Shown: piece after piece, positions 36,563 through 63,762 of the stretch
Numbering within the stretch: the first letter of the stretch is position 1
Layout: every line of letters begins with the position of its first letter
DNA from: Pantanalinema sp. GBBB05
Lineage (GTDB): Bacteria; Cyanobacteriota; Cyanobacteriia; Leptolyngbyales; Leptolyngbyaceae
Direction: 5' to 3'
Length of the DNA stretch: 64,000 nt
Assembly: GCF_016743235.1 (NCBI RefSeq)
Contig: NZ_VRZD01000005.1
Coordinates: 175,622 to 239,621 of the forward strand
Translations under genes and position numbers: made by a program
The notes under the pieces: model-generated
What the model saw: the letters and a program-made list of their open reading frames with translations, nothing else
What the model was told of the DNA's origin: nothing
Databases searched by the model: none

Positions 36563-39106
36563 CTAAAACTGTAATGAGAATGAACCAATTACAGTCAGTG
36601 GTTCTCCTGGTTGGATGCCACTATCACTCCCAGTCACCGATCGGATGTAATTCGTGTTGCCAATATTACGGATGTTGACTGCAAAGCGGTAGTTATCGCG
36701 GCGATAAAAGATCGCGGCATTACCAATCAAATAATCACCGACCTGAAAGCTATTTGCCAAATCCCCATAGCGATTGCTCACATACTCAAATCCAGCTCCA
36801 AACCCTAACCCCTTTAAGCTACCCTGCTGAATTTCATAGGTTGTCCACAAACTGGCTTTATGTTTTGGAATCCCGAAAAACTCATTATCAATGACAGTTT
36901 CATCTGTATCCTCTGTAACGTTGGCATCAATGTAAGCATACGAGGTAATGATTTTCCAACCGGGTAATATTTCCCCAGCAATATCTAGTTCAATGCCCTG
37001 ACTCTTTTGCTCGCCCACCGCGATCGAAAAAAGCGGATTATCTGGATCAGTCGCCCCAACATTTTTCTTAGTAATGTTAAAGTACGTCAAGGTTGCCAAC
37101 AGTCGTTGGTCAAATAGTTCGGTTTTAACTCCCACCTCAAATCCTTCGCCCTCTTCTGGTTCAAGCACAGAACCACTGGCAGTGAGAGCCGTACTGGGCT
37201 TAAAGGATTGGGAGTAGTTGGCAAACAAAGTTAACTCGGGGATCGGACGATACAGCAAGCCAACACGTGGAGTTAGAGCATCATTGGTTTGTTCAGATTC
37301 ACTTTCATCCGTGAACGCCGTTGCAATATTCGTCACTTTTTGTGTCACTGTGTCGTAGCGCAATCCGGCAACCAGAATCAAATTATCGAGGAGGTAAATC
37401 TGATCTTGGAGGTAGATGCCAAGACGATTCGCTGTAGTGCGGTTGTCACCGAAGGGGGGTAAATCCGCCCGATCGGGTTTGGGAATCAGATCGTAATTTG
37501 GATTAAAGATATTCAGCGGAGTCGGATTGCCAAAGAAAGTTGTAATCCTGGAGTCACTATGGTTCAGATCAATCCCGGCTGTGAGGGTATGTCTGACTGA
37601 TCCAGTAGAGAATTTGCCAACAACATTCGTAAAGAGTGAATAAGAACGATCGGTTCCATCCTGATCCGCATAAAAGCGAATAATGTTATCACCAATAACG
37701 CGAAATGGCAGAGCGATAACGTTGTAATTGTAGTCATAGCTGATATAACGGAAGCTGTTACGAATTTTCCAGTCATCACTAAATCGATGTTCAAAGTTAT
37801 AGCCTGTACTCAAATAGTTCGTTGTCACTGAGTCATCAGGATGATTGGCAACAAACTCTCGTGACACAGGCGCTACACCATCTCCATAGCGAGTCAGCCC
37901 AAAATCCGCAGCACTTTGCTGGCGAATATATTCTAGATTGAAGGTAATATCGGTGCGATCGCCGATTTTCCAAGTTAGCGCTGGAGCCAGTAAGAGGCGA
38001 TTTGTGTCAGAATCAAAATCCCGAAAGGGTTTTTCATGCTGGAATAGTAAGTTTAAGCGATAGAGTAGATCGCCATTGTCCGTTAAAGGACCGGTCACAT
38101 CCAACCGAGGTCGGAGCAACTCCCGATTACCAAGCTGGAATTCTGCTTCCCGAAACGGTTCAGCCAATGGTTGCTTAGAGACTAGATTAATCACACCCCC
38201 TGGCTCAATTTGCCCATACAAAATTGAAGCGGGTCCCTTCAACACCTCAATCTGTTGCAGATTAGCAAGTTCGGGGATCCCCTGAAAGTTGCCATAGAGC
38301 CGATAGCCATCTCTTAGCACGGGTGCACCACTACTCACTTGGTTGCCAAACCCTCGGATACTAAAGGCAGCTTCACGTCCTCCATTCGTTCCTGTCGAAG
38401 ACACACCACTAATATTGGTCAGGGCATCTTCCAGCCGAATTGCCTGCTGATCTCGCAGAACTTCCTGGGGGACAACTTGCACGGAAAAGGGAGTTTCGAG
38501 AATGGGGGTGTCGGTTCCAGTTGCCGTTGAAGCATTGGGAACACGGTATTGACTGGGACGATCGCCCGTGACAATCACTTCCTCTTCCGCTGCTTCTGCA
38601 TCTTCTGGCAGCGTAGCCGTCGGGCTAAGTTGAGATTGCACTACCACCGTTGGAAACTCTGTTTCGCCAGTCACACGAATTTCTAAACGGTTGTTACCAC
38701 TCTGCGTGACAGTAACGGATTGAATCCCTGGAGCAGGAGCAGTTAGCTGAAATTCCTGACGATCGGGCAAGGCTAAGACCGCATTAGCAATTTCAGCAAT
38801 GAATGTCTTGGCTTCACGGCGGGTCGCTTCGGGTTGCAAGATGATATCCTGGTCAGTTTCCAGAATGATTTGAATCCCGCCCTCCGTGGAATTCACACGG
38901 ACACCTGTTACCTGAACGATCGCGGCTGGCTCAGTCTGTGCCAAGAGATCGGCAGCTTGAGTCCGAGGTTGCTCCCGCTCGGTCAACTGAATACCTTGAG
39001 CAGGCTGGTTCGAGAGTCGTTCCTCCTGGGCATCACTGATACCACTGGCACATAAAGCGATCGTTCCTGCTAATCCTACAGCAGTAGCGAGTTGATAACG
39101 TTTCAT
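36563..39106 (-). CDS. TonB-dependent outer-membrane receptor (siderophore-type) with N-terminal extension
   Basis: Signal peptide MKRYQLATAVGLAGTIALCASG; an extra N-terminal beta-rich domain of about 150 aa; plug domain (...VIVTGDR..., ...IEVLKGPASILYGQIEPGGVINLVSK); 22-strand barrel ending in the terminal F (...GSFSLQF). The true start is taken at ATG 39106 rather than the ORF-track start at 39169. Confidence 0.85.
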   Translation of the reverse strand: MKRYQLATAVGLAGTIALCASGISDAQEERLSNQPAQGIQLTEREQPRTQAADLLAQTEPAAIVQVTGVRVNSTEGGIQIILETDQDIILQPEATRREAKTFIAEIANAVLALPDRQEFQLTAPAPGIQSVTVTQSGNNRLEIRVTGETEFPTVVVQSQLSPTATLPEDAEAAEEEVIVTGDRPSQYRVPNASTATGTDTPILETPFSVQVVPQEVLRDQQAIRLEDALTNISGVSSTGTNGGREAAFSIRGFGNQVSSGAPVLRDGYRLYGNFQGIPELANLQQIEVLKGPASILYGQIEPGGVINLVSKQPLAEPFREAEFQLGNRELLRPRLDVTGPLTDNGDLLYRLNLLFQHEKPFRDFDSDTNRLLLAPALTWKIGDRTDITFNLEYIRQQSAADFGLTRYGDGVAPVSREFVANHPDDSVTTNYLSTGYNFEHRFSDDWKIRNSFRYISYDYNYNVIALPFRVIGDNIIRFYADQDGTDRSYSLFTNVVGKFSTGSVRHTLTAGIDLNHSDSRITTFFGNPTPLNIFNPNYDLIPKPDRADLPPFGDNRTTANRLGIYLQDQIYLLDNLILVAGLRYDTVTQKVTNIATAFTDESESEQTNDALTPRVGLLYRPIPELTLFANYSQSFKPSTALTASGSVLEPEEGEGFEVGVKTELFDQRLLATLTYFNITKKNVGATDPDNPLFSIAVGEQKSQGIELDIAGEILPGWKIITSYAYIDANVTEDTDETVIDNEFFGIPKHKASLWTTYEIQQGSLKGLGFGAGFEYVSNRYGDLANSFQVGDYLIGNAAIFYRRDNYRFAVNIRNIGNTNYIRSVTGSDSGIQPGEPLTVIGSFSLQF

Positions 39107-39274
39107 CCCATTCCTCACACAAAATTTAGTCGAATTTGGAAAAGCTTCTATCAGTAATGCAACAAGCACTTCAGTTCAGTCGCAATCTACAGACGTGTTA
39201 TTTCAGCAATACCAACTGAACTTGGCAAAGCTGTTATATCTAATTGCTTTCGACAACTCAAATATTGATCAGTT

Positions 39275-39687: not shown

Positions 39688-40947
39688 CTAAAGCAGATTC
39701 ACAGTCGAAGAATTAGACAGATAGGAACTGCCTAAATAGCGGGCAATTAACACAACACAAATGCTCATAATCATGGCACTGAGCACAAAAACACCTCGAT
39801 ACCCTAGACCACTTGCCAAAACTCCACTGATGGCAGCAGCAGGTAAACTTCCCATCGTGTTTAAGGAAGCTTGAATGGCATAGTCAGTAGCCGCAGTCTC
39901 TGGATAACTCTTATCCATCATGATGGTAAATGCTGTAGTCACCACCATCCCCAATGAACACGATGTGACTCCCACAATGCTGTACAACACAGATAATTGG
40001 GTCAATCCCAAGGTCGGTACGGCGTAAGTCAACATGCCGATCGCGGAAAGACTACTGGCAATCAGCAGCGTTCGTTGCCGACCTAAAGGTGGAATGAGCA
40101 AGCCAGCCGCGAGCGAACCAAAAATAGTCGAACAGGTTCCCACAATGCCCAGCAACCAACCCACCTCTGCTAAGGACAGTCCCAAATCAATCAGTAATGG
40201 TCGAAACATGGTGATAGAGAGACTATAACCAAAGTTATATAGCAGCAGAATACATAGCCAAACCTTCATGCCAGGGCGTTGGCAGAAGTGCAGGAAAATT
40301 GTGAAATAGTTACGGAGACGATCGCGGATGTTGGCAGAACGATCGTAGGAGTGGTTAACGACAACTTTGGGTTTTTCTTGATGCAATAGCACCGGTATGA
40401 GTGCTACCAGCATTAATCCAGCTAAGGTGAGTAAACTCCCTCTCCAACCCCAACGACTCAGCAATATCAGCATGCCACCGCCGCCGATCATACTCCCTAA
40501 TGAACCACCGACGCTTTGCACAGCGTTACCCAAGCCCCGTTCCTGAGGTTCCAGTAATCCTAAAGCTAAGGCATCTGTAGCAATATCCTGACTGGCACAG
40601 CCGATCGCGATTATCAGCATGCCCATCAGCACGATCGGCAACTGGGTGCTGACACTCAGCAGACTACACAGGGCAGTGACCATCGCGACTACGGATTGCA
40701 GCAAAATAATCCAAAACCGATAGTGTCCCAGAACGGTGAAGCTATAGCGATCGATCAGAGGTGACCAGAGAAACTTGAGCGTGATTGGCAGAACAACCAG
40801 CGGCAATAGCCCAATCGCCGTCAATGACAAGCCTTCTTGACGTAAGACCACCGGCAAAGCCTGATACAAAAATAGAAACGGCATAGATTGTGAGAGGTAC
40901 AAACTGCCGAGTAATCCCAACTTGTTGAAACGCCGAGCCTGAATCAC
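39688..40947 (-). CDS. MFS transporter
   Basis: About 12 TM helices, MFS-type loop motifs (GLLIPPLGRQRTLL; ...DRYSFTVLGHYRFW...). Confidence 0.75.
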   Translation of the reverse strand: MIQARRFNKLGLLGSLYLSQSMPFLFLYQALPVVLRQEGLSLTAIGLLPLVVLPITLKFLWSPLIDRYSFTVLGHYRFWIILLQSVVAMVTALCSLLSVSTQLPIVLMGMLIIAIGCASQDIATDALALGLLEPQERGLGNAVQSVGGSLGSMIGGGGMLILLSRWGWRGSLLTLAGLMLVALIPVLLHQEKPKVVVNHSYDRSANIRDRLRNYFTIFLHFCQRPGMKVWLCILLLYNFGYSLSITMFRPLLIDLGLSLAEVGWLLGIVGTCSTIFGSLAAGLLIPPLGRQRTLLIASSLSAIGMLTYAVPTLGLTQLSVLYSIVGVTSCSLGMVVTTAFTIMMDKSYPETAATDYAIQASLNTMGSLPAAAISGVLASGLGYRGVFVLSAMIMSICVVLIARYLGSSYLSNSSTVNLL

Positions 40948-41102: not shown

Positions 41103-42215
41103 TCAAACGGAATTTTTCCGCCGTTGCATCAGGTACTCATGCGGTCCCACCCCGAATTGTTTGCGAAATGCGGTATAGAACGAGCTACGGCTGGTATAGC
41201 CCACAGCGGCTGCCACCTGCTTAATTGCCATATCACTCGTTTCTAAGAGTTGCTGCGCCTGTTGCATGCGATCGTGATACAGGCATTCAAATGCTGTCAT
41301 ACCAAATACCTGCCGAAAACCACGCTTCAAGGTGCAATCATTGAGTCCAACCTGGCGGGCTAAAGCTATGAGTGAGGGCGGCTGCTTTAGTTGCTGACGC
41401 AGGATTTCTCGGGCTTGATAGATTTTTTTAGTATCCTCTGCTGATAATATTTTGGCTGAAGCTAGTGGCTGGTTCTGAGCGGCAATTTGCTCCAATCGAA
41501 GAGTAATTAGCTCTAAAGCCTTGCTTTCTAGATACAGTTGCCGAGATATACCTTGATAAGGACAATCGAGCAGTTGATTGAGAATGTTCTGCATGGCAAC
41601 AGTACTTCTGCCGCTGAGAACTGGCTCAAATTCCAGCCAAAGTTCAGCCTCGCCATCTGCTTCAGGCATTGGCTCCGAGCTAGATAACCTAGACAGCTCT
41701 GAATCATGTAGCATTGGCAGAGTCGCTCCTTGTCGATGCAGCAGAGAATTGTCCAAACCACTGCACTCAAGCGGCTCAAAATAACGTTTTGCCAGTTGCC
41801 GCAGGTTGGGGGAAAGCTGTTCCAATAATCCAGAGAAGTAAGATTCTAGCCGGGGAGTCGTCACAAACACTTCGACCCACAGGTGGCGCTGTCCAGACGG
41901 CAACTGGAGCCGTTTGCGATCGCCCAAATGCAGCATAGTTAAATTGCTGCCAGAATTATTTCCAACCAAGCAAAATTCAAACTCCAGAGAAGGACGAAAT
42001 AAAGCCACGTTTTGCTCGATTGCTTGGGTCAGTTCACAATCGACAATCACCAGTGATAAGCCACGGCTTAATTCAATTTCTCGTACAAACCCCTGCCCCA
42101 TAGCCACTGGAATCTGCCAAATTCGATCGCTAAGATCGGCGTGGAATAGCGGCAAGCCTACAGAAGTACTGGGCGTAAATAATTCATTCATCTGATGCAG
42201 AAACAGCGCTGTCAT
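41103..42215 (-). CDS. AraC-family transcriptional regulator with N-terminal effector domain (YbtA/PchR-like architecture)
   Basis: C-terminal dual HTH (...LIALARQVGLNDCTLKRGFRQVFGMTAFECL...VAAAVGYTSRSSFYTAFRKQFGVGPHEYL). It is divergently transcribed from the biosynthetic genes. Confidence 0.8.
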   Translation of the reverse strand: MTALFLHQMNELFTPSTSVGLPLFHADLSDRIWQIPVAMGQGFVREIELSRGLSLVIVDCELTQAIEQNVALFRPSLEFEFCLVGNNSGSNLTMLHLGDRKRLQLPSGQRHLWVEVFVTTPRLESYFSGLLEQLSPNLRQLAKRYFEPLECSGLDNSLLHRQGATLPMLHDSELSRLSSSEPMPEADGEAELWLEFEPVLSGRSTVAMQNILNQLLDCPYQGISRQLYLESKALELITLRLEQIAAQNQPLASAKILSAEDTKKIYQAREILRQQLKQPPSLIALARQVGLNDCTLKRGFRQVFGMTAFECLYHDRMQQAQQLLETSDMAIKQVAAAVGYTSRSSFYTAFRKQFGVGPHEYLMQRRKNSV

Positions 42216-42450: not shown

Positions 42451-42720
42451 ATGGGAGGAAATGAAGTGAATCGTTTAACCACGATGGAGACGCTGACAGC
42501 GATTCTGATTGATTTAGGGATTCCAGCCACAGCCCTCCAGGAAGACACCTTACTGCATGGACATTTAGGTTTGGATTCTGTGGAAACTGTCAAGCTGGCT
42601 CTGGAACTAAAACGGAGGCTAGACATCGACATGCCCTTGGGCACTCGTAATGACATGTCATTAGCCGAGATTTGTCAACGGGTAGAAGTAGCTCTATCCA
42701 CTCAATCCTCCGGCTGTTGA
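42451..42720 (+). CDS. Stand-alone acyl/aryl carrier protein
   Basis: About 85-aa acidic protein with the phosphopantetheine-attachment motif GLDSVETVKLALEL. Confidence 0.7.
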   Translation: MGGNEVNRLTTMETLTAILIDLGIPATALQEDTLLHGHLGLDSVETVKLALELKRRLDIDMPLGTRNDMSLAEICQRVEVALSTQSSGC

Positions 42721-42734
42721 AGGGAATTTAGAGA

Positions 42735-44318
42735 TTGCCAAAGGAAATTAGCATGGACAGTATTTCTGCACAGTTGCCAGATCACTTTAACGTGGCAGCT
42801 TATTTTCTCGAAAGGAACCTGGCACCGCAACGGGGCGATCGCATTGCCTACTATTATCGAGATCAGTCCTATACCTACACGCAAGTCTCTAGTTGGGTCA
42901 AGCGCACGGCTCACCTACTCGCTGAGTTGGGATTAGAGCGAGAAAATCGTCTGGCGATTCTGTTACCCGATACCCCCGAGTTTGTCTTTACTTTCTGGGG
43001 AGCGATCTGGTCAGGCAATATACCCGTTCCGATTAATACAACTTGCTCTCTGGAAGATATTCAGTATATTTTGCAAGACTGTCGCGCTAAAGTTTTGGTG
43101 ACGACTCAGGCATGGCTAGAGACCTTGTCGCCCATCCAATCCCCGTTTCTCCAGGAAACTCTTTTAATCGACGGGGAACAACCCCTAATCCCATTGTTAG
43201 CCCAACAGCAGGAGCGAGTGGCTTGGGCAGAAACGCATCCAGAAGAACCAGCTTTTTGGCTATATACCTCTGGCAGTACCGGACGACCGAAAGGAGCAAT
43301 TCACCTGCATCAAAGTATGGTGGTCTGTGCAGAACAGTATGGGAAAGCCGTGCTCAACTTACAGGCGGATGACATCCTTTATTCTGTAGCTAAAATGCCT
43401 TTTGCCTACGGGTTAGGCAACACGTTGTATTTTCCCATGGCAGTAGGTGCTGCTGCTGTTCTCTCTGATGCCGCCAATGTATTTGACATCATTGCGGATA
43501 TACAAACCTATCAACCTACAGTCTTCTTTGGCATTCCAGGAATCTATGCTGGCATGCTCTCGGTACAGGAGATTGCCCCACTCAATCCTACTACTTTGCG
43601 GTTATGTGTATCCGCTGCCGAACAACTGCCGAAAACAATTTGGCAGAAGTGGCAACAACAATATGGCATCGAAATTTGTGAGGGTATTGGCACAACTGAA
43701 TTACTGCACATTTTTCTATCAAATCGTCCAGGAGAATGTTGCCCAGGCAGTTCTGGTCGTCCCGTTCCTGGGTATGACGTTGCGGTACTCGATGCTGAGG
43801 GAAACCCCGTTCCGCCCGGTGAAATAGGTGTGCTAGAAGTGCGAGGGGAAAGTTTGATGCTAGGGTACTGGAACCGGTTGTCAGCCACCCGTCAAGCGTT
43901 GTGTGGCACAGCAATGCGGACTGGAGACAAGTATGTCAAAGATCCGGATGGCTATTTTTGGTTCATGGGACGCAATGACGACTGCTTTAAGGTAAATGGG
44001 ATGTGGGTGTCTCCATTTGAAGTAGAGGATGTTTTGCTGCAACATGAAAGCATTCTTGATGTAGCAGTTCTTCCAAGCACGGACAGTGGGGAAACCCTGA
44101 CACAAATAGTGGCTTATATCAGCCTTAAACTAGAATTTGTGCCCTCTACAGATTTAGAGCAACAAATTCGTCAACTCGCAAAGTTACAGTTACCGCACTT
44201 TAAAGCACCAAGTCGCATTCATTTTCTTCCCGCCCTACCACGTACCTCGACGGGCAAAATTCATCGTCAAGCATTACTGCACCAACGGGATCGTGATCCC
44301 GCCAGTGTTGAAATTTGA
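42735..44318 (+). CDS. Aryl-acid--CoA/ACP ligase of the benzoate-CoA ligase family (ANL superfamily)
   Basis: AMP-binding motif LYTSGSTGRPKG, the BCL-family hallmark AKMPFAYGLGN, and the C-terminal lysine region PRTSTGKIHR. Confidence 0.8.
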   Translation: MPKEISMDSISAQLPDHFNVAAYFLERNLAPQRGDRIAYYYRDQSYTYTQVSSWVKRTAHLLAELGLERENRLAILLPDTPEFVFTFWGAIWSGNIPVPINTTCSLEDIQYILQDCRAKVLVTTQAWLETLSPIQSPFLQETLLIDGEQPLIPLLAQQQERVAWAETHPEEPAFWLYTSGSTGRPKGAIHLHQSMVVCAEQYGKAVLNLQADDILYSVAKMPFAYGLGNTLYFPMAVGAAAVLSDAANVFDIIADIQTYQPTVFFGIPGIYAGMLSVQEIAPLNPTTLRLCVSAAEQLPKTIWQKWQQQYGIEICEGIGTTELLHIFLSNRPGECCPGSSGRPVPGYDVAVLDAEGNPVPPGEIGVLEVRGESLMLGYWNRLSATRQALCGTAMRTGDKYVKDPDGYFWFMGRNDDCFKVNGMWVSPFEVEDVLLQHESILDVAVLPSTDSGETLTQIVAYISLKLEFVPSTDLEQQIRQLAKLQLPHFKAPSRIHFLPALPRTSTGKIHRQALLHQRDRDPASVEI

Positions 44319-45664
44319 GTTTCTTTACGCAGGTATTTCCAATGTATCCAATTGCTACTGCCCCGATCGTTTATCACGAGTTATTCGTTCCAGTTCAGAA
44401 AGACCCGCAGTCCGTTTTACAGAATTTGCTAGAGATGGGATTGTTTTCGAGCTACATCCTGTATCACGGTGAGCAGGAGACCCGGATTGCTGGCAATGCT
44501 CTAGGTCGCATTACGGTGAGTACAGAAGCCATACAGGTTAATTGTCTGGGGGAAAGTCAGACTTACCCGATCGCAGATCCACTGCAACAGGTGGAGTCCG
44601 CCTTAGGATCGCTCCCGATTGAAGACTGGACTGCCTACGGTTACGTCAGCTTTGATCTGGCTCGCTTTTACTATCCCTATACTAAAGCGATGCCACACCC
44701 CCTCCTACATCTGTTTATCCCCGAAACTGAGCTACATATCACAGCGAAAGGAATGCGGATTAGAAGTGTGAAGTCACTACCCAAAATTCTGGAAGCCCTA
44801 TCGATAGAACGCCCCTGCCGCGCCTATACCGCTACCCCACCAGTCGTAGATTTTAGTGATCGTGACAACTATCAAACTCAAGTCAGTCAACTGATTCAGG
44901 CAATTCAAGCGGGACATTTACATAAAGCAATCCTATCTCGTTCCGTCACCCTGCAAGGTGAAATGGATGTGCTAGGAACCTACTGTTTAGGAGCGAGTAG
45001 TAATCCAGCCGTACGATCGTATTGTTTTCAGTTGGATGATTTATCTGCGGTTGGGTTTAGTCCCGAAATTTTAATGACTGTAGATGCCGATCGCGGTGTG
45101 ATTACTAATCCTCTCGCTGGAACTCGTCCACGCTCAGATAACCCTGAGCAAGACCAACAATGGCATCATGAGTTGTTTACGGATGCGAAAGAGGTGAAAG
45201 AACATGCCCTCTCGATTTGGCTCGCTCAAGCAGAGATGTCTTCATTTTGTGTACCTGACACCGTTCGCGTGTTTGATTTTATGCAGGTGAAACCCTACCG
45301 ATGCGTACAGCACTTGTCATCGCGGGTCGGTGGAGAGTTACAAGCTGGAAAAACCCTCTGGGATGCCCTGAAAGTTTTACTACCTGGGATTACAGTATCT
45401 GGAATTGACAAACAGCAAGCATTAGCCTGGATCGATCGCTTAGAAGCTACGCCCAGAGGTATCTATGCCGGGGGCATCGGCTGGATTAATCACCAGGGAA
45501 TTGCCGATTTTGCGATCGCGATTCGTTCTGTCTATCAATATGGTGATGCTATCCATTTCAATGCCGGAGCTGGAATTGTAGCGGAATCCGTACCAGAAAA
45601 CGAGTATCTGGAGTCTGTAAACAAAATGAATACAATGTTGACAAATTTAGTGTTAAAGCCGTAA
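44315..45664 (+). CDS. Chorismate-utilising enzyme (MST family), salicylate-synthase/isochorismate-synthase-like
   Basis: C-terminal chorismate-binding signature (...LAGTRPRS..., ...RGIYAGGIGWINHQGIADFAIAIRS..., ...AGAGIVAESVPENEYLES). At 449 aa its size matches MbtI/Irp9-type salicylate synthases. No amidotransferase partner gene is adjacent. Confidence 0.7.
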   Translation: MSFFTQVFPMYPIATAPIVYHELFVPVQKDPQSVLQNLLEMGLFSSYILYHGEQETRIAGNALGRITVSTEAIQVNCLGESQTYPIADPLQQVESALGSLPIEDWTAYGYVSFDLARFYYPYTKAMPHPLLHLFIPETELHITAKGMRIRSVKSLPKILEALSIERPCRAYTATPPVVDFSDRDNYQTQVSQLIQAIQAGHLHKAILSRSVTLQGEMDVLGTYCLGASSNPAVRSYCFQLDDLSAVGFSPEILMTVDADRGVITNPLAGTRPRSDNPEQDQQWHHELFTDAKEVKEHALSIWLAQAEMSSFCVPDTVRVFDFMQVKPYRCVQHLSSRVGGELQAGKTLWDALKVLLPGITVSGIDKQQALAWIDRLEATPRGIYAGGIGWINHQGIADFAIAIRSVYQYGDAIHFNAGAGIVAESVPENEYLESVNKMNTMLTNLVLKP

Positions 45665-45834: not shown

Positions 45835-47127
45835 TTATTCGCGATCGTGATCCGGTAGTAAATCTTCAGCCTGACGCAGTACAGGGATCATATATCCCCC
45901 TACCCCAATCAGAATCATACTCATGGCAGCCAGGATTACTAGTACAGCAATGCCAGCCCCCATATCCGTCCCCAGCCAAGGTGCCCAGAGTGAAGAGAAC
46001 CATCCACCCGAATTCATCATCGGTGCAAAAACGCGATCGACTAATGGTCCAGCCAGCAAGCTCGCCATAGCTCCCACAATTAAACCCAGCGTATGGGCTG
46101 TCGCTAACACTCGTCCTTGAACTGCTACCGGAACCTTGGCATACCAGATGGCATAGCTGGAACTAAATGCCAGGGGAATATGGAATGCCGAGAAAAACTG
46201 CGCTCCCATCCAAATCCAAGGAATGCGACCTAATCCTAATAAGAGATCACCCATACCTGCACCAATAAATCCCAATAACATGCCATTCATACGCCGATGG
46301 AAACCACCCAAAATACTTAAACTGGTAGCACCAACTACACCGCCTACCCCTGCTGCAATCACAACAGTGCTGAGCACTTGAGCGTTCCCATCAGTGCGGG
46401 CAAGAATGAGCGGTTGGGATAAGGTTTCACTCAGTTGGTGAGTAAACAGAAATAAGCAAAAAATTAGCGTCATTGCCAGCAGACTAGGTCTGGCTAAGAT
46501 GTAATTTAGCCCCCAGAATAGTTGCTGCCAAATTGACTTGCCATTGATTTGTTCTGCTTCCGCATGATCGGGTTGGGGAATTTTGACTAGTAATACGCTG
46601 GTCATACCGATCGCAAACGTTATTAGATCAATCAACAGAATCCCCATTAATCCGATCGTGGGGTAAAGGCTACCCACTAAAGCAGGAGCAAGAATCGCGG
46701 AACTGTAGTCCACTACAGCACGCATACTACTCACGCGGGTATACTGCTGCTTTGACACCATTAAAGGAATCGAGGCAATATACGCCAGTCCTTGAATATG
46801 CCCAAAACAACCATAGGCAATAGCTAATCCATAGAGATGCCAGAGCTGTAGATGGGCGGTGAAGTAAAGCCCACCGATCGCTATCGTACAGAGCGCTACA
46901 CTGGCATCACTAAAAATCATTAAGAATTTGCGATTGCAGCGATCGATCACTAATCCAGAAAAGATACCAATTAAAATCTGTGGTAACTGAAAAAAGAAAC
47001 TTAGGAGGGCGATCGCAGTCGTCTCCTGGGTCAATTGCCAAATCCAGATGGTCAGTGCAAATTGAGTCATTGTGGTACCAATAGCAGATGCCATCTGACC
47101 ACTCCAGAGAATTGTGAAAGTTCGCAC
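45835..47127 (-). CDS. MFS transporter (putative product exporter, EntS/YbtX-like placement)
   Basis: 430 aa, about 12 TM. It is embedded within the biosynthetic genes. Confidence 0.75.
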   Translation of the reverse strand: MRTFTILWSGQMASAIGTTMTQFALTIWIWQLTQETTAIALLSFFFQLPQILIGIFSGLVIDRCNRKFLMIFSDASVALCTIAIGGLYFTAHLQLWHLYGLAIAYGCFGHIQGLAYIASIPLMVSKQQYTRVSSMRAVVDYSSAILAPALVGSLYPTIGLMGILLIDLITFAIGMTSVLLVKIPQPDHAEAEQINGKSIWQQLFWGLNYILARPSLLAMTLIFCLFLFTHQLSETLSQPLILARTDGNAQVLSTVVIAAGVGGVVGATSLSILGGFHRRMNGMLLGFIGAGMGDLLLGLGRIPWIWMGAQFFSAFHIPLAFSSSYAIWYAKVPVAVQGRVLATAHTLGLIVGAMASLLAGPLVDRVFAPMMNSGGWFSSLWAPWLGTDMGAGIAVLVILAAMSMILIGVGGYMIPVLRQAEDLLPDHDRE

Positions 47128-47426: not shown

Positions 47427-49034
47427 GTGCAATCGGTACTACTAGAGTGCCCACTCAAGAAGAATTTAAGTTTTAACCTATCTGCCATGCTCACACAGTC
47501 AGTTGGTATTCGCTCACTGGCAGTCAGTTTTCCCAGTACTATCCGACCAAATCAGTATTGGTTAGACCAATTTCCCGACTTGTTTGTTGCCAGTGAACAA
47601 CGACAAGCCCGACAACATCAATCGCTAACAGTTCAACCTGCACAGACCAGATTTGAACAAGCTGGCATTGATCTCTGGTTACAGGAAGTTACCCCATACC
47701 TCGCCGACCCATTTCGCGGGAGTGTGGAACGTCGGGTGCTGCTCCCTCATGAGTCATCGCTAATGCTGGAGTGCCAAGCAGCTCAGGAAGCTCTCCAGGC
47801 AGCAGAGCTGTCACCGGATCAGATTGATCTGGCGATCGTGACCTCTCTATTTCCCGATGCCGTGGGTCCTGGTTCAGCCGCTGACTTTGCTCGGGCATTG
47901 GGCTTATCTTGCCCCGCTTGGAGTTTGGAATCTACTTGTAGCAGTGCATTGGTCGCTTTACAAACAGCCCAAGCATTCGTGCAACACGGAACTTATCGCA
48001 CCGTTTTAATTGTTGTTTCACACGTTGGTTCTCGAGCTGTCAATGAGGCTGATACCCTGTCGTGGTCCTTAGGCGATGGGGCAGGAGCCTGGATCGTTAG
48101 TCATGTTCCTGCCGATCGGGGCATTCTCAGTACACATATCATGCCAACTACCGCTACTTGTGGTGCTTATGTCCATGAGCTGGTGATTGATCAGTCGGGT
48201 GCACCTCGGATCCAAACTCGCACTGGTGATCAAGCAAGTCGGTTAGCTGAGACAGCAGTAGATACTGTTCGCCAATGCTGTCAGGCAGCTGTGCAAGCGG
48301 CAGGGGTTAGCCTCGATCAAATTGCCTGCTTTGCCATCAATACTCCGACCGCCTGGTATGCCAGCGTCTGTGCCAAGGCGTTAGGAATTGATCCGGCACG
48401 AATCATGAATCTCTACCCGGTATATGCCAACATTGGTCCAGTATTTCCCATGGCAAATCTGCATCATGCCGCCACAACAGGACAACTGCAAGCCCATGAT
48501 CTGGTGCTGGTATACACTAATGGTGCAGCCGCAACCGCAGCCGCAACAGTGATGCGGTGGGGAAAGGTGGCTTTGGGAACATCTCCTACCCAATCATGCC
48601 AGCGATCGCCACAGCCTAGGGAATTATCTAGAGCAGCCCCGATCTCTAGCCTGAATGAACTCGAAAAAGAAGAGGTAGGACTAACAGATCTACGATCGCA
48701 ATTGCTGGCAGCTCTTCCCCGCGATCGCCACTCTATTCTGGAAGCTGCTTTGCTGGAATGGTTGGCACAGGCACGGCAACTTGAGCCAGCTCAACTTAAC
48801 AGCCAATCCCTATTAACCACAGTATTGGATTCTTTAATGGCAATCGTTCTGCGTCATCGGCTCGAAACAGAGTTGCAGATACCAGTACCAATGGAGGCAT
48901 TTTTTGGTGAGCAGACGATCGCAGATCTAATTAATTTTTTACTTCAACAACTGATGATCTCAGAATTAGTTGAGACAAATGCGATCGTCTTAAATTCCAG
49001 CCATTCGGTAGAACGAGAGATCTTCAGTTTATAA
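47427..49034 (+). CDS. KAS III (FabH)-like enzyme fused to a C-terminal carrier-protein (ACP/PCP-like) domain
   Basis: FabH-like fold with nucleophile elbow LESTCSSALVAL and Asn motif YANIGP. A C-terminal extension of about 100 aa carries the phosphopantetheine motif VLDSLMAIVLRHRLETEL. Confidence 0.65.
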   Translation: MQSVLLECPLKKNLSFNLSAMLTQSVGIRSLAVSFPSTIRPNQYWLDQFPDLFVASEQRQARQHQSLTVQPAQTRFEQAGIDLWLQEVTPYLADPFRGSVERRVLLPHESSLMLECQAAQEALQAAELSPDQIDLAIVTSLFPDAVGPGSAADFARALGLSCPAWSLESTCSSALVALQTAQAFVQHGTYRTVLIVVSHVGSRAVNEADTLSWSLGDGAGAWIVSHVPADRGILSTHIMPTTATCGAYVHELVIDQSGAPRIQTRTGDQASRLAETAVDTVRQCCQAAVQAAGVSLDQIACFAINTPTAWYASVCAKALGIDPARIMNLYPVYANIGPVFPMANLHHAATTGQLQAHDLVLVYTNGAAATAAATVMRWGKVALGTSPTQSCQRSPQPRELSRAAPISSLNELEKEEVGLTDLRSQLLAALPRDRHSILEAALLEWLAQARQLEPAQLNSQSLLTTVLDSLMAIVLRHRLETELQIPVPMEAFFGEQTIADLINFLLQQLMISELVETNAIVLNSSHSVEREIFSL

Positions 49035-52712: not shown

Positions 52713-55700
52713 GTGAGTACAAATCAAACGGGTTTGGAAATTGCGATCGTTGGTTTAGCAGGACGATTTCCAGGTGGAGCAAGTATTGATGATTTTTGGC
52801 ACAATCTCAAAACAGGCGTAGAGTTAGTTACACCCTTTGCAGCCCAACAGTCGGTTGCCGAGGAGGATGCCAAGGATTGCCACCGCTCCCAGCCGATCGT
52901 CAGAGCAGGCGCAGTATTGCAGAATGTCGATCAATTTGATGCCGCGTTCTTCGGCTTCAATCCAGGCGAGGCAGCCGCTTTAGATCCCCAACATCGGTTG
53001 TTTTTAGAATGTGCTTGGGAAGCGCTAGAAACGGCTGGATACAGTTCAGAAACACCAGACCGTCCGATCGGGGTGTTTGCAGGAGTCGGGATGGGGACTT
53101 ACTTACTGTATAACCTCAGCCCCAACCCTGGTTTGATCGAATCACGGGGCTTCCTCCCGACCGTAGTTGGAGTCGATAAAGATTATCTACCAACCCGAGT
53201 TTCCTATAAATTAAACCTCACAGGACCGAGTGTGAGCGTGGGCACAGCTTGCTCCAGTTCCTTAGTCGCTGTGCATCTAGCTTGCCAGAGTTTGCTGAGT
53301 GGAGAATGCGATCTGGCATTAGCAGCAGGTGTTGCTGTCAAAGTCCCACAAGATGGACACACGTTATCGCCAGACGAGATTGTTTCTCCAGACGGACATT
53401 GTCGGGCATTTGATGCCAACGCGAATGGCACTGTAGGGGGTAACGGCATTGGCGTAGTAGTACTCAAGCGCTTGGAGGATGCGATCGCCGATCGTGACCA
53501 CATTTATGCTGTGATTAAAGGGTCTGCAATCAATAACGATGGCGCCATGAAGGTCAGCTATACAGCCCCCAGCCAGGAGGGACAAGCCAAAGTTATTCGA
53601 GCAGCTCATCTGATGGCAGACGTTGAACCGGAAACGATTACTTACCTGGAAACTCACGGCACTGGCACCGCTTTGGGTGATCCGATCGAAGTTGCTGCCA
53701 TGACCCAAGCCTTTCGGATGGCAACGGATCGAACTGGCTTTTGTGCGATCGGCTCGGTCAAAACCAATGTGGGGCATTTAGATGCAGCGGCGGGAATTAC
53801 AGGCTTAATTAAAACGGTACTGGCACTTTACTATCGCCAAATCCCTCCCAGCATTAACTTTGAGACGCCTAACACCCAAATCGATTTTGCCAATAGTCCG
53901 TTTTATGTCAATGCTCAACTGAGGGATTGGCACACGCAGGGCATGCCCCGACGAGCAGGAGTCAGTTCCTTTGGCTTTGGCGGCACTAACGTTCATCTTG
54001 TGCTGGAAGAAGCTCCAGTGGGCGTTGCAGAGGATACCATCCCCCCCCAACAACGCCCCTATCAGTTGCTGACACTATCGGCAAAAACCCCAACCGCGTT
54101 GGCGCAAGCAACGGTTAATCTCCACGATCGCCTGCAGCAATCCCCTGAACTGGATCTCGCTGATGTTGCCTACACGCTTCAAGTCGGACGATGGGAATTG
54201 CCCTATCGCCGGATTGTGGTTGCCCAAACATTGGACGATGCCGTGCAACGCTTAGCAGGCGCTCAGTCGCTTCCTGTGGACACAGCACACCCTCACAGCA
54301 TTGATCCACCAGTGATTTTCATGTTTCCGGGTCAGGGTTCCCAAGCGGTCAATATGGCACGGCAACTGTATGAGCACGAACCAACTTTTCGAGCCGAGTG
54401 CGATCGCTGCTTTGCGCTACTACAAACTAAACACAATTTAGATTTACGCGCCGTACTATATCCCGATCGTGCTGATGATAGCCAGCCACTAACCCAGACA
54501 GCGATCGCTCAACCAGCATTGTTTGTCGTCGAATACGCCCTAGCAAAACTCTGGATGGCCTGGGGAGTACAACCGCGATCGTTGATTGGGCACAGCATTG
54601 GTGAATATGTCGCTGCTTGTCTGGCAGGTGTCTTTACCCTTGAGGATGCCTTAAGCTTAGTGACTGTACGTGCCCAATTGATGCAGCAACAGCCACCTGG
54701 AGCCATGCTCGCGGTCCATTTATCGGCTGATGCTGTGCAGCCATTTTTATCTGACAGTCTTTCCCTGGCGGCTAACAACAGCCCTAACCTCTGTGTTATT
54801 TCTGGGGCAACAGCCGCGATCGCGCAACTGGAAGATCAGTTAACAGCCCAGGGGATTGATTGTCGGCGATTACACACCTCCCATGCGTTTCATTCCCCCA
54901 TGATGGCAGCCGTCATCGAACCATTGGTTCAATACTTACACGATATTCGGCTACATCCACCCCAAATCCCGATCATTTCTAATCTCACAGGCAAATGGTT
55001 AACGATCGAGGAAGCCACTGATCCACATTATTGGGCACAGCATTTACGTCAGACAGTCCAGTTTGCTCCAGGCATCGCTGAATTGTTGTTGCAAGCAGAC
55101 GCGATCTTCCTAGAAGTGGGACCAGGGCGGACTCTGGCAACGCTAGCCAAACACCAAGCCAGCGATCGCGTTATCCTCACCTCGTTGTCACACCACCAAG
55201 AAGCAGTGGAGGATGGGCAATCCTTACTACACACTCTGGGACGGCTGTGGTTAAGTGGCGTTCCCATTCACTGGGCGAACTTCTATACCCATCAATCCCG
55301 CCACCGGGTGCCATTGCCGACTTATCCATTTGAACGTCAGCGTTATTGGATTGATCCGCCTCAGTCCTCCCCAATCACCACTACTACACTCTCTAAACGT
55401 CCGGATATTGCTGATTGGTTCTATAGTCCCTCCTGGAAACGATCTGCTTTACCGCCGATCGCGGTCAGTGATTCCACCCGTTGTTGGGTCGTTTTTGTCG
55501 ATCGGAGTGGGTTGGCTACGGCTCTGATCCAACGGCTTCAGCACCAGGGAGATCGGGCGATTCAGGTTCAAGCGGGGGAGGAATTTAGTCAATCCCACCC
55601 AGATGGTTACACAATTAATCCTAGTGATCGCTCCCATTATGATGCTCTGATTCAAGCCATCCTTGCCTCTGAGCCAACTCCAATTCTGGCTCACTTATGG

Positions 55701-57332
55701 ACAGTCGATCAGGATCTTACCTTCACTACTACTCAAGCCCTTGGTTTTTACAGTTTGCTCTACTTAGCGCAAGCACTAGGGCAACAGTCGCTTGCTCATC
55801 CGCTTCATATCAATGTGATTTCTAGCCACAGCCAAGAGATTACTGGTGAAGAAATTTGCCCCGAAAAAGCCACAGTCTTAGGAGCTTGCAAAGTTATTCC
55901 TCAGGAATATGCAACGCTCTCTTGCAGTTTAATTGATGTCGTTATTCCTGACACAGAGCTATCTACTAATGAGACACTGGTTGAGCAACTTATTCACGAA
56001 ATGCTAATCCAGTCTACTCAACCCTCTGATCCAGTGATTGCCTATCGAGGTCGTTATCGTTGGTTGCCGATTTATGAACCCATGCGTCTGGAAGCAGTAC
56101 ATCAGCCCGATCCCTTACGATCGCAGGGCGTATATTTGATTACGGGTGGTTTAGGAGGAATTGGACTCACCATTGCTGAGTATTTGGCAAACACAGTACA
56201 AGCCAAACTTGTTCTAGTGAGCCGTTCAGCGTTGCCACCTCGAAGTGAGTGGGAAGCATGGTTAGCCACTCATCCAGAGTCAGATGCCACCACAGTAAAG
56301 CTGCAAACAATTCAAGGGTTAGAAGCACTCGGTTCAGAGGTATTAATTCTGAAGGCTGATGTGGCAGATCAGCAACAAATGCAAACGGCGATCGAGCAAA
56401 CTCAGCAAAGCTTTGGGCAACTTCATGGCATCTTTCATACGGCTGGTGTACCAGGAAATGGGATTATTCAGCTTAAAACACCTGCAATGGTAGAAGCTGT
56501 TATGGCAGCTAAAGTCCAGGGTACGCTGGTTCTGCATCACGTTTGTCAGAATCTCCCGCTGGATTTTCTGGTACTATTCTCCTCTCATAGCGCGATTTTG
56601 GGTGGTATGGGGCAGGTAGACTACTGTGCCGCCAATAATTTTCTTGATGCATTGGCTGGCTCGCAAATGGCTCAACAACATTACCGGACGATTGCCATCA
56701 ACTGGGATATCTGGCAAGAGATTGGCATGGGTGCAGATCTGACTCAATTACCCGATCGCTTACGACAGGAGCGGTTAGAGAGCCTCAAAACTGGCATTTC
56801 ACCTCAGGAAGGCGTAGAAGCACTGCACCGAATTTTGCATAGTGGATGCAATCAAGTTGTTGTTTCCACCAGAGATTGGCAAGGTGTGCTGCAGCAAGCC
56901 CAGCAACGAACGACCGTCGCAGTAGAGCAAAACTCAATCAATTCACCATCCCTACCATCCAGTTCAACGGAACATTCGCGATCGCTCCAATCCACAACCT
57001 ATATCGCGCCTAGCAATGAGATTGAGCAACGAATAGCGGCGCTCTGGCAAGAACAACTGGGGATTGCCGCTATAGGTGTCCATGACAACTTCTTTGAACT
57101 AGGAGGACACTCGTTGCTAGCGGTGCGGATCATATCGCGATTACGAGAACTATATCCAGTTGAGCTATCACTCCGGGTGTTGCTGTCTGAAGCTCCTACA
57201 GTGGCAGGTTTAGCCCAAGTAATTGCCAAGCAACTTTCCCAACTAGATGATATCGATGAACTCGCGAGAATTCTCGCAGAGATTGAACAGTTGTCTCCAG
57301 AGGCAGTGCAAGCCCAATTAGCTCAAAATTGA
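52713..57332 (+). CDS. Type I PKS module: KS - AT (malonyl-type) - KR - ACP
   Basis: KS GTACSSSLVAVHLA, ETHGTGTALGDPIE, NVGHLDAAAG. AT GHSIGEYVAACLAG with the HAFH specificity motif. KR Rossmann ITGGLGGIGL with catalytic S/Y/N region (SSHSAILGGMGQVDYCAANNF). ACP FFELGGHSLLAVRI. No DH, ER or MT motifs were seen. Confidence 0.9.
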   Translation: MSTNQTGLEIAIVGLAGRFPGGASIDDFWHNLKTGVELVTPFAAQQSVAEEDAKDCHRSQPIVRAGAVLQNVDQFDAAFFGFNPGEAAALDPQHRLFLECAWEALETAGYSSETPDRPIGVFAGVGMGTYLLYNLSPNPGLIESRGFLPTVVGVDKDYLPTRVSYKLNLTGPSVSVGTACSSSLVAVHLACQSLLSGECDLALAAGVAVKVPQDGHTLSPDEIVSPDGHCRAFDANANGTVGGNGIGVVVLKRLEDAIADRDHIYAVIKGSAINNDGAMKVSYTAPSQEGQAKVIRAAHLMADVEPETITYLETHGTGTALGDPIEVAAMTQAFRMATDRTGFCAIGSVKTNVGHLDAAAGITGLIKTVLALYYRQIPPSINFETPNTQIDFANSPFYVNAQLRDWHTQGMPRRAGVSSFGFGGTNVHLVLEEAPVGVAEDTIPPQQRPYQLLTLSAKTPTALAQATVNLHDRLQQSPELDLADVAYTLQVGRWELPYRRIVVAQTLDDAVQRLAGAQSLPVDTAHPHSIDPPVIFMFPGQGSQAVNMARQLYEHEPTFRAECDRCFALLQTKHNLDLRAVLYPDRADDSQPLTQTAIAQPALFVVEYALAKLWMAWGVQPRSLIGHSIGEYVAACLAGVFTLEDALSLVTVRAQLMQQQPPGAMLAVHLSADAVQPFLSDSLSLAANNSPNLCVISGATAAIAQLEDQLTAQGIDCRRLHTSHAFHSPMMAAVIEPLVQYLHDIRLHPPQIPIISNLTGKWLTIEEATDPHYWAQHLRQTVQFAPGIAELLLQADAIFLEVGPGRTLATLAKHQASDRVILTSLSHHQEAVEDGQSLLHTLGRLWLSGVPIHWANFYTHQSRHRVPLPTYPFERQRYWIDPPQSSPITTTTLSKRPDIADWFYSPSWKRSALPPIAVSDSTRCWVVFVDRSGLATALIQRLQHQGDRAIQVQAGEEFSQSHPDGYTINPSDRSHYDALIQAILASEPTPILAHLWTVDQDLTFTTTQALGFYSLLYLAQALGQQSLAHPLHINVISSHSQEITGEEICPEKATVLGACKVIPQEYATLSCSLIDVVIPDTELSTNETLVEQLIHEMLIQSTQPSDPVIAYRGRYRWLPIYEPMRLEAVHQPDPLRSQGVYLITGGLGGIGLTIAEYLANTVQAKLVLVSRSALPPRSEWEAWLATHPESDATTVKLQTIQGLEALGSEVLILKADVADQQQMQTAIEQTQQSFGQLHGIFHTAGVPGNGIIQLKTPAMVEAVMAAKVQGTLVLHHVCQNLPLDFLVLFSSHSAILGGMGQVDYCAANNFLDALAGSQMAQQHYRTIAINWDIWQEIGMGADLTQLPDRLRQERLESLKTGISPQEGVEALHRILHSGCNQVVVSTRDWQGVLQQAQQRTTVAVEQNSINSPSLPSSSTEHSRSLQSTTYIAPSNEIEQRIAALWQEQLGIAAIGVHDNFFELGGHSLLAVRIISRLRELYPVELSLRVLLSEAPTVAGLAQVIAKQLSQLDDIDELARILAEIEQLSPEAVQAQLAQN

Positions 57333-63273: not shown

Positions 63274-63762
63274 ATGGGATTCCGATTTAGAGACTACACG
63301 ACTTGTCTATCTGAGTTTGAGTCAACCATCTGGGTGCTGTGCCCCCGTTGTCAGCATCCCGTGCTCTCTCGTTGTCTGGATGAACGGCTGACTTGGCGCA
63401 TTGCCTGCCCTCACTGTAGCTATACCCGGACAGCCTCCCGAGCCGCTAAACGACAACAACCGATGCCGTGGTGGAAAGGAACCTGGTGGACAGCATATCG
63501 CCAATCGGGTGGTGCGATCGACCCGCTATTCGGACTGCCCCTGTGGTTACAAGTCCCCTGCTGTGGACAAGTCTTATGGGTCTATAACGCAGCCCATCTG
63601 GACTTTCTGGAAACGTATGTTAGTGCCATGATTCGGGAACGCCAGGGCAGTAAAGGTAATCATCATGGGATTGCTGTTCGCTTACCCCGCTGGATGAAGC
63701 TAGCCCACCATCGTACCGCGATTCTTAAGGGTATCCAACAGTTACGGGAGCGATTGCATTAG
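63274..63762 (+). CDS. Hypothetical Cys-rich (zinc-ribbon-like) protein
   Basis: CPRCQHP...CPHCSY and CCGQ motifs; 162 aa; immediately downstream of the NRPS. Confidence 0.4.
   Translation: MGFRFRDYTTCLSEFESTIWVLCPRCQHPVLSRCLDERLTWRIACPHCSYTRTASRAAKRQQPMPWWKGTWWTAYRQSGGAIDPLFGLPLWLQVPCCGQVLWVYNAAHLDFLETYVSAMIRERQGSKGNHHGIAVRLPRWMKLAHHRTAILKGIQQLRERLH

Follow-up and report, generated by a model that had tools for sequence, protein, structure and literature searches.

A KAS III-like carrier-protein didomain with a Cys-Asn-Asn active site as a candidate loading module for salicylate in cyanobacterial metallophore biosynthesis

In this study, we examined a gene of the cyanobacterium Pantanalinema sp. 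GBBB05, located on the forward strand at positions 47487..49034 of a 64,000-nucleotide stretch of DNA (contig NZ_VRZD01000005.1, positions 175,622 to 239,621; this whole stretch is called the window). The gene encodes a β-ketoacyl-ACP synthase III (KAS III)-like domain followed by a carrier protein (CP), and it is referred to here as KASIII-CP. The protein is probably, by a modest degree of confidence, the loading didomain of a salicylate-primed nonribosomal peptide synthetase (NRPS)-polyketide synthase (PKS) metallophore line, in which it would serve as a non-decarboxylating aryl transferase. The evidence is found in the active site, in the carrier domain and its conserved C-terminal tail, in the gene order of orthologous loci, and in the products of two published clusters.

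Domain layout and active site of the didomain

The mechanical open reading frame (ORF) was found at 47427..49034 on the plus strand, with a GTG start and 535 amino acids, and its limits were equal to those given in a first-pass annotation of the same DNA. Residues 1-20 were without counterpart in most homologs, and the database protein of the Pantanalinema genome, which was 100% identical to the protein of the window, contained 515 amino acids. For these two reasons the true start is most likely the ATG at 47487, 60 nucleotides 3' of the GTG at 47427. Residue numbers below refer to the 535-residue ORF. The features of the gene were as follows.

47487..49034, plus strand: KASIII-CP gene with corrected start, 515 amino acids, ATG checked at 47487
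47487..48584, plus strand: KAS III-like (FabH-fold) domain, residues 21-386, from Pfam, PDB matches and the AlphaFold2 (AF2) model
47937..47939, plus strand: codon TGT of Cys171, aligned with FabH Cys112, Cys in 121/121 family members
48339..48341, plus strand: codon AAT of Asn305, at the FabH His244 position, Asn in 121/121
48429..48431, plus strand: codon AAC of Asn335, aligned with FabH Asn274 in the motif Y-A-N-I-G, Asn in 121/121
48585..48686, plus strand: flexible interdomain linker, residues 387-420, without secondary structure and poorly conserved, predicted local distance difference test (pLDDT) 25-29
48687..48980, plus strand: carrier-protein domain, residues 421-518, PP-binding profile, helical bundle with pLDDT 77-93
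48831-48833, plus strand: Ser469, predicted phosphopantetheine attachment site, in an invariant L-D-S-L motif
48981..49031, plus strand: disordered C-terminal tail, candidate docking peptide, ending in S-V-E-R-E-I-F-S-L-COOH, pLDDT below 50

Both halves of the KAS III fold were recovered above the Pfam gathering cut-offs, with ACP_syn_III at residues 168-238 (54 bits, cut-off 24) and ACP_syn_III_C at residues 290-378 (37.3 bits, cut-off 26.6). The PP-binding profile matched residues 467-505 with 33 bits (cut-off 20.8). The FabH models of NCBIfam scored far under their cut-offs, the best with 112 bits against 249 and the next with 107.6 against 292, which makes the KAS domain a divergent relative and no ordinary FabH. 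Compared with FabH, it also had about 50 additional residues inserted close to the N-terminus. The AF2 model, built from 45 family members and numbered from Met21, had a mean pLDDT of 77. In model numbering, the KAS core 1-366 was confident (pLDDT mostly 80-97), the linker 367-400 was disordered, the carrier domain 401-498 was helical and confident, and the tail 499-515 was disordered. Ser469 is residue 449 of the model, where it was the first residue of a predicted helix (449-463), and the residues D468-S469-L470 were invariant across the family alignment.

The protein of the window was aligned with 120 homologs and E. coli FabH, giving 121 family members including the query. In the FabH reference sequence, the residues C112, H244 and N274 were each confirmed. 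All of the motifs quoted in the first-pass annotation were found in the protein, namely LESTCSSALVAL (Cys171), CFAINTP (Asn305), YANIGP (Asn335) and VLDSLMAIV (Ser469). Cys171 is predicted to be the acyl-accepting nucleophile. Asn305 was part of an invariant F-x-[FI]-N-T-P-T-A-W-Y motif, and the signature Cys-Asn-Asn was conserved in 121/121 aligned members although the overall identity was only 50-60%; the site is therefore under selection and shows no decay. Distant relatives, collected by an exhaustive search, contained F-x-F-H-[T/Q] at the same ungapped position as Asn305, and the equivalence of Asn305 with His244 is supported because these relatives carry His there. The first-pass annotation had described a KAS III fold with a nucleophilic Cys and an Asn motif, a possibly replaced catalytic His, and a C-terminal carrier with a Ser of the DSL type, and each of these was borne out. 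It had also named two findings that would speak against it, an intact Cys-His-Asn triad and a missing carrier Ser; both were looked for, and the triad was Cys-Asn-Asn in every member and the carrier Ser was always present.

The FabH mutants H244A and N274A, in work attributed to Davies et al. 2000, reportedly lose decarboxylation and keep transacylation. In condensing KAS III enzymes the Cys performs transacylation, and decarboxylative condensation requires a His/Asn (or His/His) pair. KAS III-like acyltransferases that do not condense are recognised by another residue in place of the first His, described as Val in CerJ and as Asn in Pau29 (PMC4425429). Judged from these residues, the KAS III-like domain of the window is unlikely to support a decarboxylative condensation of the FabH type.

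The best sequence and fold matches of the KAS domain in the PDB were FabH, PqsD, PqsBC, OleA and BioZ. The top Foldseek matches were FabH structures, with target-normalised template modelling scores of 0.86-0.88. CerJ, ChlB3 and DpsC were absent from the 57 PDB sequence matches (E<=1e-3) and from the top 50 Foldseek PDB matches. ChlB3 was reported to contain the triad Cys113-His296-Asp301, with the His at the FabH Asn274 position (PMC9573744). In the protein of the window, Asn335 was followed by I-G-P-V-F, and the fifth residue onward was thus a Phe where ChlB3 has Asp301. The first-pass annotation had likened the protein to acyltransferases of the CerJ/ChlB3/ChlB6 type; membership of that clade was rejected, since the Cys-His-Asp signature was absent and those structures were not among the sequence or fold neighbours. 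The O- and N-acyltransferases of the CerJ/Pau29/AfcL type share the loss of the first His with the protein of the window, and Pau29 even has Asn there. They differ from it by a His at the second position and an Asp (Cys/Ser-His-Asp), in contrast to Asn335 and Phe here, and they acylate sugars or amines.

ChlB3 of chlorothricin biosynthesis (PDB 7EQI) is a direct precedent for the proposed role. It has the same thiolase fold and an active-site Cys, and it has likewise lost the first His of condensing KAS III; Phe266, which was listed among its pocket residues (PMC9573744), probably occupies the first-His position, as judged from the numbering. ChlB3 moves a 6-methylsalicyl group from carrier protein to carrier protein (PMC9573744), and such a transfer of a salicyl-type group without condensation is the role proposed here for the protein of the window. 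It differs in being free-standing and in belonging to the DpsC/CerJ clade, whereas the protein of the window is Cys-Asn-Asn, nearer to FabH, fused to a carrier and placed before an NRPS heterocyclisation (Cy) module. By this analogy, the protein of the window plausibly works like ChlB3, yet outside the clade of ChlB3. E. coli FabH and PqsD share the equivalents of Cys112 and Asn274 with it, and in PqsD the compound made by an aryl-CoA ligase gives rise to an anthraniloyl-S-Cys intermediate. Both differ from the protein of the window, which has His244 replaced by Asn, the N-terminal insertion, and an added carrier and tail.

Gene order, distribution and the C-terminal tail

By its gene content, the window is predicted to hold a salicylate-primed NRPS-PKS metallophore cluster. 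The genes surrounding KASIII-CP that are concerned with the starter unit and with the first extension were as follows.

42451..42720, plus strand: free small acyl carrier protein (ACP), Ser43 in LGLDSVE
42735..44318, plus strand: benzoate-CoA-ligase-family AMP ligase, TIGR02262 497 bits (cut-off 375), also resembling FadD22
44315..45664, plus strand: salicylate synthase-like chorismate-binding enzyme, Pfam Chorismate_bind, best NCBIfam match TIGR03494
49201..52695, plus strand: NRPS with TubC_N docking domain (residues 8-58), Cy, A and peptidyl carrier protein (PCP), from Pfam, Cy motif DLLVFDAWS at residue 213

The chorismate-binding enzyme scored 322.7 bits on the salicylate-synthase equivalog TIGR03494, just below the cut-off of 325.15; it is likely, though formally borderline, a bifunctional salicylate synthase.

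At least 120 homologs of about 500 amino acids, with the same architecture and 53-73% identity, were found in a large protein database, and all of the named ones were cyanobacterial. In a scan that took a single genome for each species, 160 genomes contained relatives, nearly all of them in the fused form. The records of the best 80 of these 160 genomes were all cyanobacterial by title, except for one 'uncultured bacterium'. Among representative KAS III clusters the fused length was found in only about 2 of 150, and the carrier fusion is essentially limited to this cyanobacterial group. The first-pass annotation had called such a fusion rare, which is true across the KAS III families and does not hold within the cyanobacteria, where it was drawn as early as 2014 and listed in 2025 as LusP and, judged by position and size, as FatG.

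The synteny sample contained 77 loci of the fused form, of which 69 had enough downstream sequence and 58 had at least 7 kb upstream. The next assembly-line gene was an NRPS with a TubC_N docking domain and a Cy domain in 69/69 informative loci. It directly adjoined KASIII-CP in 60 of these, and in the other 9 a single FAD-halogenase gene intervened. Upstream of KASIII-CP, the salicylate synthase was present in 54/58 loci, the ligase in 55/58 and the free ACP in 54/58; the ACP adjoined the ligase even where the cassette was inverted. Genes of ACPS-type phosphopantetheinyl transferases (PPTases) were found beside the orthologs in 39/58 loci. The gene maps of Chamaesiphon PCC 6605, Allocoleopsis/Microcoleus PCC 7113 and Fischerella agreed with this gene order.

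Many clusters contained one or two dedicated ACPS-type PPTases, located beside the free ACP and just upstream of KASIII-CP (L002:5155-5586 and L002:8498-8917; L003:7808-8272). No gene of this type was found in the window by tblastn with a Fischerella PPTase query (E<1e-3). In five fused loci (L030, L046, L048, L062, which lies on the Acaryochloris marina plasmid pREB1, and L034), an AraC gene was located directly upstream of KASIII-CP, and no salicylate synthase or ligase was found within 10 kb upstream. These five loci may draw on an aryl-acid cassette at another place in the genome, or the starter may differ.

The C-terminal tail was compared in 62 orthologs. Arg was conserved at position -6 (59/62), Glu at -5 (61/62) and Ser at -2 (52/62), with hydrophobic residues at -3 and -1, giving the pattern [E/D]-R-E-x-Phi-S-Phi-COOH. 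The motif lies about 25-30 residues beyond the helical bundle of the fused carrier, and the protein of the window ends in VEREIFSL. A C-terminal motif of this kind was not found in the free ACP, whose C-terminus was short and unconserved. Other megasynthases that precede TubC_N starts in these loci were found to end in L-D-[D/N]-R-x-E-I-E-L, and the two tail types were alike in their acidic residues, in the Arg at -6 and in the hydrophobic residues at -3 and -1. KASIII-CP would thus be the in-line partner of the Cy module, reached through tail docking, because only the fused carrier has a conserved tail that resembles the C-termini found before TubC_N domains. The co-variation between tail and docking domain, with a normalised mutual information of 0.43, was slightly higher than in the control (0.34); it is confounded by phylogeny and was given no weight.

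A similar arrangement is represented by EpoA and EpoB, where, reportedly in Dowling et al. 2016, the EpoA loading module docks onto the N-terminal docking domain-Cy portion of EpoB. The order in the window was EpoA-like, with the KASIII-CP tail preceding an NRPS whose TubC_N domain (residues 8-58) scored 64.4 bits on PF18563 against 26. The pair would resemble EpoA/EpoB, and also the docking of TubB and TubC, in having a KS-like loader with a terminal carrier and a tail directed to a TubC_N-type domain before Cy, the docking here being proposed by analogy. EpoA differs in being a type I KS(Y)-AT-ER-ACP protein that obtains an acetyl starter by decarboxylation, in contrast to the type III loader of the window and its pre-made aryl thioester.

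The gene family itself is already known. Calteau et al. (2014) drew a 'KACP, KSIII acyl carrier protein' in the anachelin cluster model and counted it among four 'salicylate starter unit' genes (PMC4247773). In the fatuamide cluster, FatG (1524 nucleotides, 'KAS III') is flanked by a PPTase and by the Cy-A(Cys)-PCP protein FatH, and no role was given to it (PMC11877528); by size, annotation and position, FatG is probably an ortholog of the gene of the window. In the lusichelin cluster, LusP (500 amino acids, '3-oxoacyl-ACP synthase') was listed only in a table of the supplementary information (PMC12210259). We found in the genome of the lusichelin producer (locus L076) an ortholog with 49% identity and with synteny equal to that of the window. 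KACP, a KSIII-ACP within a salicylate cassette, and LusP, an ortholog at the equal cluster position, show no fundamental difference from the gene of the window. The papers on KACP, LusP and FatG do not address the mechanism, and they omit the Cys-Asn-Asn site and the docking tail. A literature search, with subscription-only papers outside its coverage, found no biochemical study of a KAS III-carrier didomain.

Proposed loading mechanism and alternatives

The proposed mechanism would proceed in five steps. Salicylate would be formed from chorismate by the salicylate synthase. The benzoate-CoA-ligase-family enzyme would then activate it and thioesterify it, most likely onto the adjacent free ACP, with salicyl-CoA as the alternative product. 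The KAS III-like domain would act as a ping-pong acyltransferase and would move the aryl group through salicyl-S-Cys171 to the phosphopantetheine on Ser469 of its own carrier. The carrier is held on a linker of about 35 residues, and its tail (E-R-E-x-x-S-L) would dock onto the TubC_N-type domain of the next protein. The Cy domain would finally condense salicyl-S-CP with PCP-bound Cys to give a hydroxyphenyl-thiazoline.

The transfer through salicyl-S-Cys171 is supported by the invariant Cys, by the loss of the first His, by the precedent of ChlB3 and by products without a C2 unit. In the fatuamides and the lusichelins the salicylate is joined directly to the thiazoline (PMC11877528, PMC12210259), and these products argue against a Claisen extension at the FatG/LusP position because no C2 unit is inserted. 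A relay of the aryl starter toward the Cy module, as proposed in the first-pass annotation, is the reading that best fits the synteny, the candidate docking tail and the product structures. The other reading offered there, in which the enzyme primes a short polyketide starter, is disfavoured because the fatuamide and lusichelin clusters give products with a salicyl-thiazoline.

The most likely donor is the free ACP, since it adjoins the ligase in nearly all loci, even inverted ones, and since the ligase resembles the carrier-loading FadD22. FadD22 of Mycobacterium (p-hydroxybenzoate-AMP ligase-ArCP, where ArCP is an aryl carrier protein) belongs, like the ligase of the window, to the benzoate-CoA-ligase family, and it loads a carrier for a ketosynthase-type Cys. 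It differs in having ligase and carrier in one fused protein and the KS of a type I PKS as acceptor, whereas a separate small ACP is found in the window and the acceptor would be the KAS III-CP didomain. Salicyl-CoA is the alternative donor: the ligase genuinely belongs to the benzoate-CoA-ligase family, and the FabH positions that bind CoA or ACP were mixed, with W32 kept and R151 changed to T, R249 to W and K214 to E.

Several points weigh against this mechanism. The partly kept CoA/ACP-binding residues do not allow the donor to be assigned as CoA or ACP. The equivalence of Asn305 with His244 is drawn from alignments, and one pairwise HMMER alignment, with H. influenzae FabH, shifted the register by 3 residues and placed Phe302 opposite the His; in neither register does the protein of the window have a His. 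Asn305 could in principle still form a hydrogen bond with the enolate, and the sequence alone is no proof of lost decarboxylation. Tail docking is proposed from the similarity of motifs, and the acyl-transfer role of the family comes from comparison rather than from the biochemistry of any member. The need for two carriers is also unexplained, and the ligase might load the fused carrier directly, with the KAS domain having another job.

The last point leads to the strongest alternative, which we regard as unlikely, in which the carrier alone starts the chain. The ligase would load Ser469 directly, as in the ArCP of the yersiniabactin/pyochelin type, the free ACP would serve otherwise, and the KAS domain would be accessory, for instance as a dimerisation scaffold, in the editing or hydrolysis of mis-primed carriers, or as a platform on which the carrier-bound group is tailored, for example halogenated. 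A single carrier suffices in the models published for fatuamide and lusichelin (PMC11877528, PMC12210259); in the fatuamide model the ligase FatD loads salicylate on the free ACP FatB, from which it goes straight to FatH (PMC11877528). An editing role would accord with the hydrolysis of N-acetylcysteamine (SNAC) thioesters by ChlB3 (PMC9573744), and the FAD halogenase that adjoins KASIII-CP in 13 loci suggests tailoring of the carrier-bound aryl group. However, the free ACP beside the ligase in 54/58 loci, even where inverted, points to ligase and ACP as the loading unit, and it would be left without a role if the fused carrier were loaded directly. The invariant Cys-Asn-Asn site, together with dozens of invariant KAS residues, also exceeds what a scaffold would need.

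The halogenase genes were of the Trp-halogenase type. They were found, for example, at L003:8320-9987 and L004:3031-4749, and the other halogenase-adjoined loci were L017, L027, L032, L050, L057, L063, L066, L067, L069, L073 and L074. In 9 of these 13 loci the halogenase gene separates KASIII-CP from the docking domain-Cy NRPS. Their adjacency suggests halogenation of carrier-bound salicyl, of the kind seen in the leptochelins and other salicylate metallophores that bear halogens.

An ester- or amide-forming transferase of the CerJ/ChlB6/XclBC/AfcL sort, which would take the acyl group of a carrier and place it on a hydroxyl or amine of the growing metallophore and not on its own carrier, is quite improbable. 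Known KAS III-like acyltransferases do such chemistry, and standalone Cys-Asn-Asn relatives pair with thiamine diphosphate (ThDP)-dependent enzymes; but the fused carrier and the tail, always located before the docking domain-Cy module, would be left unexplained, and the Cys-His-Asp signature of that clade was absent. In addition, fatuamide and lusichelin are described in the main texts of their papers without any further aryl ester or amide.

A condensing KAS III starter enzyme, which would build a β-keto (benzoylacetyl-type) starter by condensing the salicyl primer with malonyl bound to its own carrier, with Asn305 as hydrogen-bond donor in place of His, is very improbable and was rejected: the retained FabH-like fold, Cys and Asn274 equivalent, the fold neighbour PqsD, which condenses aryl-CoA with malonyl-CoA, and a PKS AT domain in the cluster that could supply malonyl stand against the family-wide absence of the decarboxylation His, FabH scores far under the NCBIfam cut-offs, a downstream Cy domain that expects an acyl or aryl thioester for amide formation and cyclisation, and fatuamide and lusichelin products in which, in contrast to the condensations of FabH and PqsD, salicylate is placed on the thiazoline without a C2 unit.

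Metallophores with a salicylate cap, among them anachelin, the fatuamides, the lusichelins and those of many orphan clusters, appear widespread among cyanobacteria. In current schemes, salicylate passes to the Cy module directly from the ligase or the free ACP, and a gene of essentially every such cluster is ignored. If KASIII-CP is a true loading module, the published schemes miss one step, and any engineered aryl starter, whether halogenated or not, would have to pass this gatekeeper. It is quite possible, though we stop somewhat short of calling it probable, that the Cys-Asn-Asn didomain is an unrecognised type of NRPS loading module, which relays the starter from a free ACP and acts as a checkpoint for tailoring or selection, and that the wider clade is a non-condensing lineage independent of CerJ/ChlB3. 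This would be a second, independently evolved active-site solution by which a condensing KAS III is turned into an acyltransferase, and the first KAS III-derived acyltransferase fused to its acceptor carrier. For KAS III-like acyltransferases, the new elements are the active-site signature, the fusion with the acceptor carrier and the candidate docking tail; the chemistry itself is not revolutionary. The didomain could also serve as a specific marker of this cluster family in genome mining.

Standalone relatives and other genes of the window

Of about 110 full-length representative sequences, 39 had the Cys-Asn-Asn signature (FNTPxAWY followed by YANxGP). Many proteins with this signature were standalone relatives of about 360-370 amino acids, without a carrier domain and with 37-55% identity to the KAS domain of the window. 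In four of four independent contexts, standalone relatives were located directly downstream of a gene for a ThDP-dependent enzyme, often overlapping with it. The contexts were as follows.

L078:8058-11149: standalone relative context
L086:5645-8481: standalone relative context
L087:6278-9101: standalone relative context
L088:6308-10175: standalone relative context

The context in Nostoc (L078) additionally contained an aromatic amino-acid ammonia-lyase, a P450 and an AMP ligase, and in L088 the KAS was fused to an alpha/beta-hydrolase domain. No malonyl acyltransferase or fatty-acid-synthesis genes were seen in the four contexts, which are compatible with acyl transfer, rather than condensation of the fatty-acid type, as the chemistry of the clade. 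Acyloin pathways with KAS-like O-acyltransferases are a parallel to these pairs of a ThDP enzyme and a KAS. In xenocyloin biosynthesis, XclB and XclC were described, in a secondary citation, as forming esters (PMC4425429). The pairs found here may represent an uncharacterised family of acyloin and acyltransferase pathways.

The remaining genes of the cluster in the window were as follows.

36563-39169, minus strand: AMIN-domain TonB-dependent receptor
39688-40947, minus strand: major facilitator superfamily (MFS) transporter
41103-42215, minus strand: AraC regulator
45835-47127, minus strand: MFS transporter
52713-57332, plus strand: PKS with KS-AT-KR-ACP
57405-58475, plus strand: MupA/Atu3671-family luciferase-like monooxygenase, FMN-dependent, 474.6 bits
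58492-63189, plus strand: NRPS with C-A-PCP-C, second C domain with HHLITD at residue 1258
63274-63762, plus strand: ORF of 162 amino acids, after the last visible NRPS, no family match

No thioesterase was found in the last visible NRPS (58492-63189); the cluster may extend beyond the end of the window, or release may be performed by a C domain, a route that the fatuamide paper discusses for FatQ. The AMIN-Plug-barrel architecture of the receptor was also found beside the orthologous clusters L002 and L003, and AMIN-domain TonB-dependent transporters are described, in the title of a 2026 bioRxiv preprint, as an exclusively cyanobacterial class (10.64898/2026.07.30.741596). The MupA/Atu3671 monooxygenase recurred at about +9.7 to +10.5 kb in about 15 orthologous loci, including L001, L005, L007, L010, L012, L013 and L070, and it defines a sub-family of clusters with the architecture of the window.

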